From Patescibacteria group bacterium (GTDB lineage: Bacteria; Patescibacteriota; Patescibacteriia; S139-126; S139-133), in NCBI GenBank assembly GCA_049604715.1, contig JBMYTV010000001.1, forward strand, positions 91,610 through 155,609: a DNA stretch of 64,000 bases. The letters are read 5' to 3'. Both the position numbers and the translations under genes were made by a program. Shown piece by piece: positions 47,647-49,562 of this stretch (position 1 is its first letter; the number at the start of each line of letters is the position of its first letter). The notes beneath the pieces are model-generated. The model ran no database searches, was not told the origin of the DNA, and saw only the letters and a list, made by a program, of their open reading frames with translations.

Positions 47647-47734
47647 GCCGCGGTGGCGGAACTGGTAGACGCGCGGGACTCAAAATCCCGTATGCTTTTC
47701 GCATGTGAGAGTTCGATTCTCTCCCGCGGCACCA
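47647..47734 (+). tRNA. tRNA-Leu (anticodon CAA)
   Basis: Acceptor GCCGCGG/CCGCGGC. Anticodon stem CGGGA/TCCCG with loop CTCAAAA. Long variable arm TATGCTTTTCGCATGTG. T-arm GAGAG-TTCGATT-CTCTC. CCA encoded. 88 nt. Confidence 0.85.
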
Positions 47735-47737
47735 TAC

Positions 47738-47814
47738 GGCAGGGTAGCTCAGGTGGTTAGAGCGAGGGAATCATAACCCCTAGGTCGTGGGTTCAAGTCC
47801 CACCCCTGTCACCA
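47738..47814 (+). tRNA. tRNA with CAT anticodon (Met or lysidine-modified Ile2)
   Basis: GGCAGGG acceptor. D-arm GCTC/GAGC. Anticodon loop ATCATAA. T-arm GTGGG-TTCAAGT-CCCAC. CCA encoded. 77 nt. G1:C72 is paired, so not an initiator by that criterion. Confidence 0.8.
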
Positions 47815-47843
47815 AAAACTCACTTTTTTAAAGTGAGTTTTTG
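47814..47843 (+). terminator. rho-independent terminator after the tRNA pair
   Basis: aaactcacttt-ttt-aaagtgagttt followed by tt. Confidence 0.75.
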
Positions 47844-47912
47844 ATTGGATTTGGCTAATTATAGCAGTAAAATATTCAAAAAGTAGGTATCCAGGTTTAT
47901 TGTAAAAAATCC

Positions 47913-47940
47913 TTGACAAATTTTGATATACTTGTATAAT
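47913..47940 (+). promoter_or_regulatory. consensus sigma70-type promoter (TTGACA-N16-TATAAT) with no downstream long ORF
   Basis: TTGACA at 47913-47918 and TATAAT at 47935-47940. Confidence 0.55.
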
Positions 47941-48156
47941 ATATGTACAAGTTTAGACAACGCGTATCCCTGTGTTATTAATTAGAAAAAGAGTAATATA
48001 TGTTACTTTGTTTACCACATTCAATTAAAAACAACCAACGCGTTGTGAACAAAGCGGTTAGCCGACAGGCTATAGGTTGTTTTGCTTTTTCAGGAAATAA
48101 CGGTTGATTTCACACTCCGATATTTGTTCACGCAATCTAGTATCCCTCCATGCATT

Positions 48157-48188
48157 AGCACGTTAGTACGTGCTATTTATTTTTTTTC
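48157..48188 (+). terminator. plus-strand rho-independent terminator
   Basis: agcacgt-tagt-acgtgct followed by atttattttttttc. The U-tract exists only on the plus strand, although the stem overlaps the stop of the minus-strand trmB-like gene. Confidence 0.6.
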
Positions 48189-48940
48189 AGTTCCTCTTTT
48201 AAATTTGAAATTAGAGTTCGAATTGAGTTAGCAATATGTTGGTTCTTGATGATAAAAGACTTCACATCATCGTCGATAAATGAAAAACATACCTTATCAT
48301 CATAAACGTCTATTTCAGCAGTAGGGAGGGCTACTTGATCTTTACTTAGCTTAACCTCATTTGTTTCAATAGTTGACTTACTACCTTCTTCCTTGGCTGT
48401 ATAGATGACCTCAAAGTTAATATTATTCTTTTCAAATAGTTTTTTGTGGTCTATCTTATCTTTACTTTTGTTATATACAAGTAGATCACGGTCATAAAAT
48501 TCATAGACTGTTTTGTTTTGTGCTGCTGCAATTTGTTGAGCAATGATGTTTGAACCTTCTTTGCCTTTATAAAATTCTAAACCAATTTCACTGTCTGTAC
48601 TAATGTTGGTTTTTGTCTCCAAGATTTGATCAATAGACTTTGCTAAGTCAATCTTTTTGTTGTTCTCTTTGACACTTTTTTCAGCAAGGTTCTTAACATA
48701 CTCTACAAGATTGTCACTGTCTTCTGGAAAATAAAATGTTGATTTGCCATATGTGCCAATACGAATAAGTGCTTTGTGAACAAGACTATCAAGAATTTTT
48801 TTTGCAGCTGGATGAGTAACATCAAGATGACGTGCAATTTCTGATGCTTTAGCCTTATAATTCTCAGTTAAGTAAATATATGTCTCAGCTTCATTGTTAG
48901 TTAGACCGAGTTGTACCAAATTATCCTTTAACATAGCCAA
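48173..48940 (-). CDS. TrmB-family transcriptional regulator
   Basis: N-terminal winged HTH LVQLGLTNNEAETYIYLTENYKAKASEIARHLDVTHPAAKKILDSLVHKALI. C-terminal TrmB-like effector domain. 255 aa. Very AT-rich. Confidence 0.7.
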   Translation of the reverse strand: MAMLKDNLVQLGLTNNEAETYIYLTENYKAKASEIARHLDVTHPAAKKILDSLVHKALIRIGTYGKSTFYFPEDSDNLVEYVKNLAEKSVKENNKKIDLAKSIDQILETKTNISTDSEIGLEFYKGKEGSNIIAQQIAAAQNKTVYEFYDRDLLVYNKSKDKIDHKKLFEKNNINFEVIYTAKEEGSKSTIETNEVKLSKDQVALPTAEIDVYDDKVCFSFIDDDVKSFIIKNQHIANSIRTLISNLKEELKKNK

Positions 48941-49148: not shown

Positions 49149-49176
49149 CTTGACGAATTTAATAATAGGAATATAA
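49149..49176 (+). promoter_or_regulatory. near-consensus sigma70-type promoter (TTGACG-N16-TATAAT)
   Basis: TTGACG at 49149-49154 and TATAAT at 49171-49176. Confidence 0.55.
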
Positions 49177-49293
49177 TAGTAAGTGAAGATAATCTACGAT
49201 TTATGCAGAAAGCAACCGTTACAAAACATTTCGCAACAAACATGTTGTTTTGCTGCACAAATCCAGGGCCAGTATTAATCAGTTAGCACATAA

Positions 49294-49320
49294 AACCAGA
49301 GAGTCTCTCTGGATTTTTTG
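49294..49320 (+). terminator. rho-independent terminator/attenuator in the leader upstream of the GreA_C-like ORF
   Basis: ccagagag-t-ctctctgg followed by attttttg. Ends 20 nt before the ATG at 49341. Confidence 0.65.
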
Positions 49321-49340: not shown

Positions 49341-49562
49341 ATGCAGTATGCAAATGCAGGGTCAAAAGTCACAGTCAAGCTCAATGGTATTGAGCAGGAT
49401 TTGACGATTGTTGACCCTGAGTCAATTGACCCAAATAGCGGCTGCATTTCTTTTAATTCACCAATTGCGCAAGCTCTTATTGGGACAGAGCCTGGTGATA
49501 CTCGAGAAATTGATTTGCCAAACGGCAATCATGTGAGTCTCGAGATAGTTTCTGTCATATAG
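49341..49562 (+). CDS. GreA/GreB C-terminal (FKBP-like) domain-only protein
   Basis: 73 aa. DPNSGCISFNSPIAQALIGTEPGDTREIDLPNGNHVSLEIVSV parallels the GreA C-terminal domain ...DPSNGKISISSPLARALIGK.VGD.VEV..P.G...EILEV. No N-terminal coiled-coil domain is encoded upstream. Confidence 0.6.
   Translation: MQYANAGSKVTVKLNGIEQDLTIVDPESIDPNSGCISFNSPIAQALIGTEPGDTREIDLPNGNHVSLEIVSVI

Follow-up and report, generated by a model that had tools for sequence, protein, structure and literature searches.

A structured transcription unit in the slot of a conserved 35-codon gene beside a TrmB-like gene in Patescibacteria: a possible diverged microprotein gene

The locus lies in a 64,000-nucleotide stretch of a Patescibacteria metagenome-assembled genome (hereafter the window, meaning the whole stretch analysed; NCBI assigns a neighbouring protein to this group, and Logan has an identical contig) and fills the slot between a tRNA operon and a TrmB-like gene that is transcribed towards it. 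The flanks are as the earlier note had read them, with a tRNA pair at 47647-47814 on one side and, on the other, a convergent gene that matches Pfam TrmB at 9e-10. The features of the slot and its borders are the following.

47647-47814, plus strand: tRNA-Leu(CAA) and tRNA-Met, upstream of the unit
47813-47843, plus strand: terminator of the upstream tRNA operon, a 14-bp stem with a T-rich tail
47844-47912, plus strand: possible decayed relic of a family ORF, between the tRNA terminator and the promoter
47913-47940, plus strand: promoter TTGACA-N16-TATAAT, sigma-70-type, 12/12 match
47947-47999, plus strand: 5' leader of ~53 nt, carrying one arm (the 5' arm) of the closing helix of the 5' domain
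48000-48107, plus strand: 35-codon ORF with an ATG start, MLLCLPHSIKNNQRVVNKAVSRQAIGCFAFSGNNG; basic, with no acidic residue
48045-48131, plus strand: 3' domain of the predicted fold, GUGAACAAA (48045-48053) paired with UUUGUUCAC (48123-48131), spanning the end of the ORF and the 3' UTR
48156-48188, plus strand: intrinsic terminator, an 8-bp GC-rich hairpin (48156-48175) and then a U-run
48173-48934, minus strand: TrmB/TrmBL2-like winged-helix gene, 253 aa, convergent with the unit; Pfam TrmB 9e-10

The promoter is the sole 12/12 match on both strands of the 64 kb window, where 0.05 were expected and at least one perfect match arose in 4/100 shuffles, and the earlier judgement that it is as strong as any in the window was well founded. 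Transcription would start near 47947; the hairpin that ends the unit begins ~215 nt past the promoter, and the whole unit, from promoter to terminator, is ~240 nt long. The terminator stem has 8 bp with 4 GC pairs (TAGCACGT-TAGT-ACGTGCTA, 48156-48175) followed by TTTATTTTTTTT to 48188; it forms with a pair probability of 0.98 and is scored as a terminator on the plus strand only, and on the minus strand the sequence after this hairpin is AATGCATGG, which contains no U-run. The U-tract had been described as existing on the plus strand alone, and this is confirmed at 48156-48188. Read on the opposite strand, the U-run provides the final Lys/Asn codons (KKNK) of the convergent TrmB-like gene, whose stop codon sits within the 3' arm of the stem. 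As the tRNA-Leu/tRNA-Met operon is closed at 47843 by a terminator of its own, the unit requires its own promoter. The unit is bounded by the plus-strand terminator and by the upstream tRNA terminator and, judged from its sequence, 47913-48188 is self-contained and probably strongly transcribed.

Two short repeats were observed here: a 10-nt direct repeat, TAATATATGT, at 47937-47946 in the -10 box/start-site region and again at 47994-48003 across the start codon of the ORF, and an octamer, CAACGCGT, at 47958 and 48036, 78 nt apart and with one further copy in the whole window. One possibility is that these are operator sites. TRF found no tandem repeats in the slot. Neither the unit nor a peptide of the family described below had a BLAST match in phage and plasmid collections, so the unit is not a known mobile element.

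With ATG starts, the unit holds just the two ORFs that had been listed before, of 12 aa (47943-47981) and 35 aa (48000-48107); the statement that there are no others fails for TTG starts, which open further ones of 20 aa and 49 aa. The 35-codon ORF begins 60 nt past the -10 box, and 65 nt separate its stop codon from that of TrmB. An ATG ORF of exactly 35 codons placed 45-70 nt past the -10 box occurred in 0.24% of dinucleotide shuffles of the interval (0.0024), and one of 33-37 codons at the same offset in 1.2%. Its codon-usage score, -0.03 per codon, lies between those of genes (0.27) and of spurious ORFs (-0.31), with a likelihood ratio of 0.57, and falls inside the range of the family ORFs described below, -0.12 to 0.23. 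A Shine-Dalgarno sequence is absent from 29/53 long ORFs of the window and from one of the family ORFs (that of L010), and its lack is thus no argument against translation here. At -5.6 kcal/mol, local folding at the start codon is gene-like (genes -5.8+-3.3, random sites -9.3); an 8-bp hairpin at 47990-48009 carries the AUG in its loop. As coding indicators for this ORF, codon usage, the lack of a Shine-Dalgarno sequence and the folding of the start site are neutral. The predicted tryptic peptides of the product are MLLCLPHSIK and QAIGCFAFSGNNG.

Pfam and NCBIfam held nothing for the window peptide or for the family peptides, and PDB sequence searches with the peptides gave nothing either. 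Among 1.84 billion representatives, phmmer matched the window peptide to two sequences, a spurious tandem-repeat translation and an RCC1-repeat protein; both summed weak repeat matches and were rejected as not homologous. Across the whole window, several gene starts (e.g., 2648, 45703, 49662, 52941, and 16546) have a TATAAT-like box 6-8 nt upstream of the ATG, which suggests that leaderless mRNAs are widespread in the organism.

Four related lineages cover the region downstream of TrmB: L002, L003, L005, and L010 (L011 being identical to the last across the small ORF). In 4/4, the slot and its layout are the same, with a small gene convergent with the TrmB ortholog. The relatives' promoters combine a perfect TTGACA -35 box and a 17-nt spacer with a -10 box of 4-5/6 matches; the ATG follows the -10 box by 60 nt in L010, exactly as in the window, and by 45, 66, and 69 nt in the others; the ATG ORF is exactly 108 nt long (35 codons and stop) in all four; and the 41-56 nt that come after it contain a T-run or a terminator-like hairpin right beside the stop codon of TrmB. 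The encoded peptides are as follows.

L002: MIFLPKSTKMFRFIPARYPGPHGIVEHPNSGGDGG
L003: MLYLPAEIKIFRFIPKRYPGPHGIVEHPNSNNGAG
L010: MLFLPREIKIFRFVPARYPGPHGIVEHPNSAGGGG
L005: MNNYQKNNPSLMDRSQKYPGCCGIIEHSNSNEGDG

The peptides have the core Y-P-G-x-x-G-I-[VI]-E-H-x-N-S and, in most copies, a basic N-terminal half. Those of L002, L003, and L010 are 77-80% identical, while their TrmB proteins are just 51-53% identical, and the nucleotide differences between family copies fall on codon positions 1:2:3 as 3:5:17, 6:6:15, and 6:9:19. From such comparisons, we conclude that the family ORF in the relatives is a protein-coding gene under strong purifying selection. Alignment with the relatives' slot, to which the earlier note had looked for compensatory base changes, thus brought to light not an RNA but a conserved 35-codon protein gene in four lineages; the window peptide is itself not recognizably homologous to it, so a purely RNA function in the window genome is conceivable.

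Gene callers skipped the small ORF on every relative contig. None of the five peptides (that of the window and the four of the family) was present on exact look-up in a collection of 15 billion proteins, and a degenerate-codon scan for the core motif through GTDB species genomes, JGI metagenomes, and IMG/VR found no further copy of the small ORF; the matches that it did return, a CHAP-domain protein forced by the design of the pattern and chance matches in large high-GC proteins, were rejected. The 35-residue family has so far been found only in this rare Patescibacteria clade and is absent from every database searched. A 409-residue protein of Candidatus Saccharibacteria (L008, 146-205) contains AYPGHVGIVEHVN, near the microprotein core RYPGPHGIVEHPN, in a C-terminal domain that we take from its look to be CHAP-like; as the match was retrieved with a core-derived pattern, the likeness cannot be taken as independent support for a shared origin.

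At every related locus, the small gene has the TrmB-like gene as its conserved partner. The AlphaFold model of its product (pLDDT 84.7) has its best PDB match, over the whole length, in TrmBL2 (5bpd, E 3.6e-12), an archaeal chromatin protein, and a search of 5.8 billion proteins gave just eight matches, the full-length orthologs among them being 43-49% identical; over the related lineages recovered, the TrmB orthologs are 43-56% identical. The tail-to-tail layout, with 41-65 nt between the stop codons of the small ORF and TrmB, is conserved in five lineages. On one side, the loci share ParB-ParA, a stand-alone gene for the GreA C-terminal domain (GreA'), and TrmB; on the other side, L010 has the same tRNA-Leu(CAA)/tRNA-Met pair as the window. 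This tRNA pair has been inverted as a block, being divergent from the small gene in L010 (9147-9359) and co-directional and upstream in the window (47647-47814). Two extra TrmB-like paralogs lie directly beside the small ORF in L002 (1882-3465), L003 (3594-5187), and L010 (9325-10947); the window has one TrmB-like gene only in its 64 kb, and the loss of the paralogs coincides, in this one observation, with the loss of the peptide core. A closer lineage (contigs SRR33375167_4770 and SRR33375165_301336), reached via the GreA' neighbour, has a TrmB that is 68% identical; its contigs (L012 and L013), as well as L014, L015, and L016, stop inside or before this gene. Three independent assemblies, L012 (3-542), L014 (1-657), and L016 (1-417), all break inside the TrmB-like gene, for which paralogous copies or the neighbouring tRNA genes may be responsible.

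With the family of L002, L003, L005, and L010/L011, the window unit has in common the slot, the orientation relative to the TrmB-like gene, the type of promoter, the length of the leader, the number of codons (35), and a terminator placed right against the stop codon of TrmB. The ends of the peptides are also alike, with an N-terminal LP..IK motif (LLCLPHSIK in the window, MLFLPREIK in the family) and a Gly/Asn-rich C-terminal tail ending in Gly (...S-GNNG and ...S-NNGAG), although the Smith-Waterman comparison of the window peptide with the family is weak (P 0.03-0.1). The differences are that the core Y-P-G-x-x-G-I-x-E-H-x-N-S is missing from the window ORF and that the window RNA is far more structured. 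The family core (YPG..GI.EH.NS) is absent from all six frames of the window slot, an isolated RYPG at 47885 lying outside the ORF; the family HMM scored the ORF at 0.1 bit, rank 145/1849 among stop-to-stop segments; and neither tblastn nor nhmmer found any significant similarity. The idea that the core might have survived in a shifted frame after compensated frameshifts was dropped, with no support from HMM, tblastn, or nhmmer. The unit has, in short, the positional and architectural features of the small-ORF family and not its sequence features.

Traces of the family may exist outside the ORF. Between the tRNA terminator and the promoter, 47844-47912 carries blocks in family order, AAAATATTCA, GGTATCCAGG (which encodes R-Y-P-G), TATTGT, and ATCC, with 'SRYPG' in one frame. 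A gap-tolerant Smith-Waterman comparison of this segment with the 4 family ORFs gave P(sum)=0.001 against shuffles and placed it in the top 0.06% of 8524 natural windows; nhmmer returned just a 14-nt match at E=20 for 47844-47912, which is no support. For the leader (47941-47999), a weaker likeness to the L003 ORF was seen, and nhmmer gives no support there either. These possible relics hint that the slot may have gone through duplication and decay, with 47844-47912 perhaps left over from a second copy.

The predicted fold of the unit (MFE and centroid) consists of a 5' domain, an adjacent 3' domain, and the terminator, with the 5' and 3' ends unpaired. The 5' domain is closed by a helix of 9 perfect pairs between ACAACGCGU (47957-47965) and ACGCGUUGU (48038-48046), with a mean pair probability of 0.80; in the 3' domain, the closing helix has a pair probability of 0.60 and the inner hairpin (48059-48072) one of 0.96. 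Three perfect 9-nt complementarities (47957/48038, 48028/48075, and 48045/48123) stand against 0.14 expected (P ~0.007), and the alternative pairings of the unit overlap (47957/48038, 48006/48042, 48028/48075, and 48045/48123). The first 104 nt on the plus strand (47947-48050) fold with z = -3.1, 0/300 shuffles being as stable, and the whole unit with z = -2.5 on the plus strand vs. -0.9 on the minus strand. The RNA of the unit is structured beyond chance, whereas those of the relatives show no unusual structure (z = -0.45 and -0.70). The structure suspected in the earlier note is thus borne out, as is its mention of palindromes, with CAACGCGTTG at 48036-48045; the long-range complementarity is real as well, joining GTGAACAAA (48045-48053) with TTTGTTCAC (48123-48131), but its first arm had been placed at 48052-48060, ~8 nt off.

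Comparison with known RNAs was negative. At the gathering threshold, Rfam 15 found three tRNAs only and nothing for the unit; at E<=10, the sole match within 47800-48300 was a terminator-level resemblance to ncr1241 (17.8 bits vs. a 60-bit threshold); and scans of the relatives' loci gave tRNAs only. The covariance-model scan proposed earlier therefore assigns the unit to no family. The suggestion of a 6S-like RNA was rejected on the lack of an Rfam match at E<=10 and on the fold: the two domains lie side by side and, with its 5' and 3' ends unpaired, the unit does not close into a 6S-type rod. A leader peptide locus, likewise considered at the outset, was abandoned: no co-oriented gene lies past the terminator, the next feature being the 3' end of the convergent TrmB-like gene. 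There is no sign of an antiterminator, as no inverted repeat in 47815-48200 involves the terminator arms except the stem itself and, on reading the sequence by eye, no upstream segment is complementary to either arm. In a scan for targets in the window, 12-mer matches were few, close to the chance estimate, and no complementarity stood out; duplexfold predictions of RNA-RNA targets gave meaningless global duplexes only; and the literature on sRNAs, 6S RNA, and leaderless promoters in Patescibacteria yielded nothing relevant.

At roughly even odds (a probability of about 0.5), we read the unit as a diverged positional ortholog of the unannotated 35-residue microprotein gene, possibly with a dual function. 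This reading is supported by the promoter, the terminator, the ORF, the synteny, the selection seen in the relatives, an ORF that agrees with theirs in length and offset, the weakly similar peptide ends, the gene-like folding at the start codon, and the lack of an Rfam match. Against it count the missing core, the intermediate codon usage, and a structured transcript where the mRNAs of the relatives have no unusual structure. The presence of a conserved 35-aa gene at the same slot in the relatives makes a diverged tiny-protein gene more likely than a 6S-like or other known sRNA. The most telling argument is that the exact length and offset of the family have been kept behind the best promoter of the window while the similarity has been erased. 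Selection on translation would leave such a pattern; a matching frame length and offset would only rarely come from neutral decay or from an unrelated RNA gene. Of the small RNA candidate originally put forward, the structured stand-alone unit stands, and the small protein conserved in four relatives is the kind of finding that the earlier note itself had counted against an RNA.

As a diverged microprotein gene, the unit would be an independent transcript of ~240 nt with a consensus promoter, a 53-nt leader, the 35-codon ORF, a 3' UTR, and an intrinsic terminator; transcribed from 47947, it would serve as the mRNA for a basic peptide of 35 residues. The peptide would, in this lineage, have lost the family core and the transcript would have gained stable helices that enclose the start region; with the core lost and the helices gained, the transcript may in addition have a role, or be regulated, as an RNA, as dual-function RNAs do. 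The invariable tail-to-tail pairing with a TrmBL2-like gene, together with the basic N-terminal half, leads us to propose that the peptide acts with that protein, and from the conserved gene pairing it might be, for example, a small partner or modulator of the TrmB-like DNA-binding protein.

The structure of the transcript can also be read in another way. If the ORF is an inert shell and the transcript has been kept or re-used as a regulator, the unit would be a noncoding structured sRNA from an old microprotein gene, an explanation that we find possible but hold with clear reservations. In its favour are the three 9-bp helices (P ~0.007) and the z scores of the 5' domain (-3.1) and of the unit (-2.5 on the plus vs. 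-0.9 on the minus strand), the absence of such structure from the relatives' mRNAs, the lost core and a codon usage that is not gene-like (intermediate, within the family range), and the retention of a perfect promoter and terminator. Without selection on the reading frame, however, an exact-length ORF at the family offset (0.24%) is unlikely, and the sRNA has neither an Rfam match nor a target complementarity that stands out in the window. We are rather more doubtful of a structured regulatory or dual-function RNA derived from the conserved microprotein gene, with the promoter, the 35-codon shell, and the terminator kept and the peptide given up; if true, this would be a transition from protein gene to RNA gene caught in the act, coinciding with the loss of the neighbouring TrmB-like paralogs, and it would imply that the microprotein and the TrmBL2-like proteins constitute a previously unknown peptide-regulator module in Patescibacteria.

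A decaying remnant, that is, a pseudogenized small gene without function whose promoter and terminator still look intact, seems improbable to us: the lost core, the possible relics of family ORFs at 47844-47912 and in the leader, and the absence from the window of the paralogous pair of TrmB genes next to the small gene of L002, L003, and L010 would all fit decay, but the sole 12/12 promoter in 64 kb, a strong terminator, and an exact-length frame are not expected after a divergence so deep that no sequence similarity is left. We give still less credence to a convergent antisense or interference element, in which transcription towards the 3' end of TrmB sets TrmB expression, either through the firing of the strong promoter or through pairing of the overlapping 3' ends, and which can coexist with a diverged microprotein gene. 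The terminator U-run does lie inside the last TrmB codons, with the TrmB stop codon in the stem, the tail-to-tail arrangement with 41-65 nt between the stops recurs in all five lineages, and the TrmB mRNA, for want of a U-run, may continue antisense across the small gene; yet the terminator looks efficient, and the protein-level conservation of the ORF in the relatives would be left unexplained. A 6S-like or other known housekeeping RNA is hardly credible, as its strong promoter and size of ~240 nt are offset by an Rfam search that at E<=10 offered only the terminator resemblance to ncr1241 (17.8 vs. 60 bits) and by two adjacent domains with unpaired ends.

In form, the window unit appears closest to small-protein-coding or dual-function sRNAs. 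Known dual-function sRNAs that encode small proteins include SgrS/SgrT, RNAIII/delta-haemolysin, SR1/SR1P, and AzuCR; like the unit, they are stand-alone transcripts of ~200-250 nt with their own promoter and terminator, an ORF of 26-45 codons, and stable structure, whereas the unit has no identified base-pairing target or seed and no homology to them in sequence or structure. A review of the class is PMC12310071. The likeness to 6S RNA (Rfam RF00013 and related) lies in an abundant-looking small transcript from a consensus sigma-70 promoter, and the difference in the missing covariance-model match, the lack of a rod with a central bubble, and the absence of the typical gene context. The leader-peptide transcription attenuators trpL and pheL also combine a short ORF, overlapping alternative pairings, and a terminator, but at the window unit no same-strand gene comes after, there is no antiterminator, and the ORF has no run of regulatory codons. 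In Rgg/SHP and other RRNPP systems, a regulator is accompanied by an adjacent unannotated small peptide gene, and here too a helix-turn-helix regulator is conserved beside a tiny, usually unannotated ORF; unlike in those systems, the peptides lack a hydrophobic stretch of the signal type, the regulator is TrmB/TrmBL2-like and not a TPR receptor, and no export or processing genes are found near the window unit.

In the very small, poorly annotated genomes of Patescibacteria, genes of fewer than ~50 codons are regularly overlooked. The locus reveals a conserved 35-residue protein family that is strongly promoted, always placed tail-to-tail with a TrmBL2-like DNA-binding protein, and has no match in Pfam, NCBIfam, or PDB. 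The window copy is the odd one out, with the same architecture, another peptide, and much more RNA structure, and it thereby offers a natural case in which to test how a microprotein gene diverges or turns into an RNA gene. We regard the locus as an annotation lesson and a modest lead; no long-standing question is solved by it.

A separate observation concerns the GreA' gene of the shared flank. On the plus strand of the window, 49341-49562 is a stand-alone 73-residue gene that holds the GreA/GreB C-terminal domain only (Pfam PF01272, 1.4e-18), and no N-terminal coiled-coil part was seen upstream; the copies in relatives have 73-75 residues and are 58-76% identical. Upstream of its start, a near-consensus promoter, TTGACG-N16-TATAAT (49150-49177), is followed by ~120 nt and then, just before the GreA' start codon, by a terminator-like hairpin and T-run (49296-49320). 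MAFFT and RNAalifold found no shared structure among the GreA' leaders. A promoter and a hairpin/T-run of its own ~20 nt before the ATG are present at 7/7 loci (the window, L002, L003, L010, L012, L014, and L016), which points to a conserved leader terminator, reminiscent of the E. coli greA leader/GraL.
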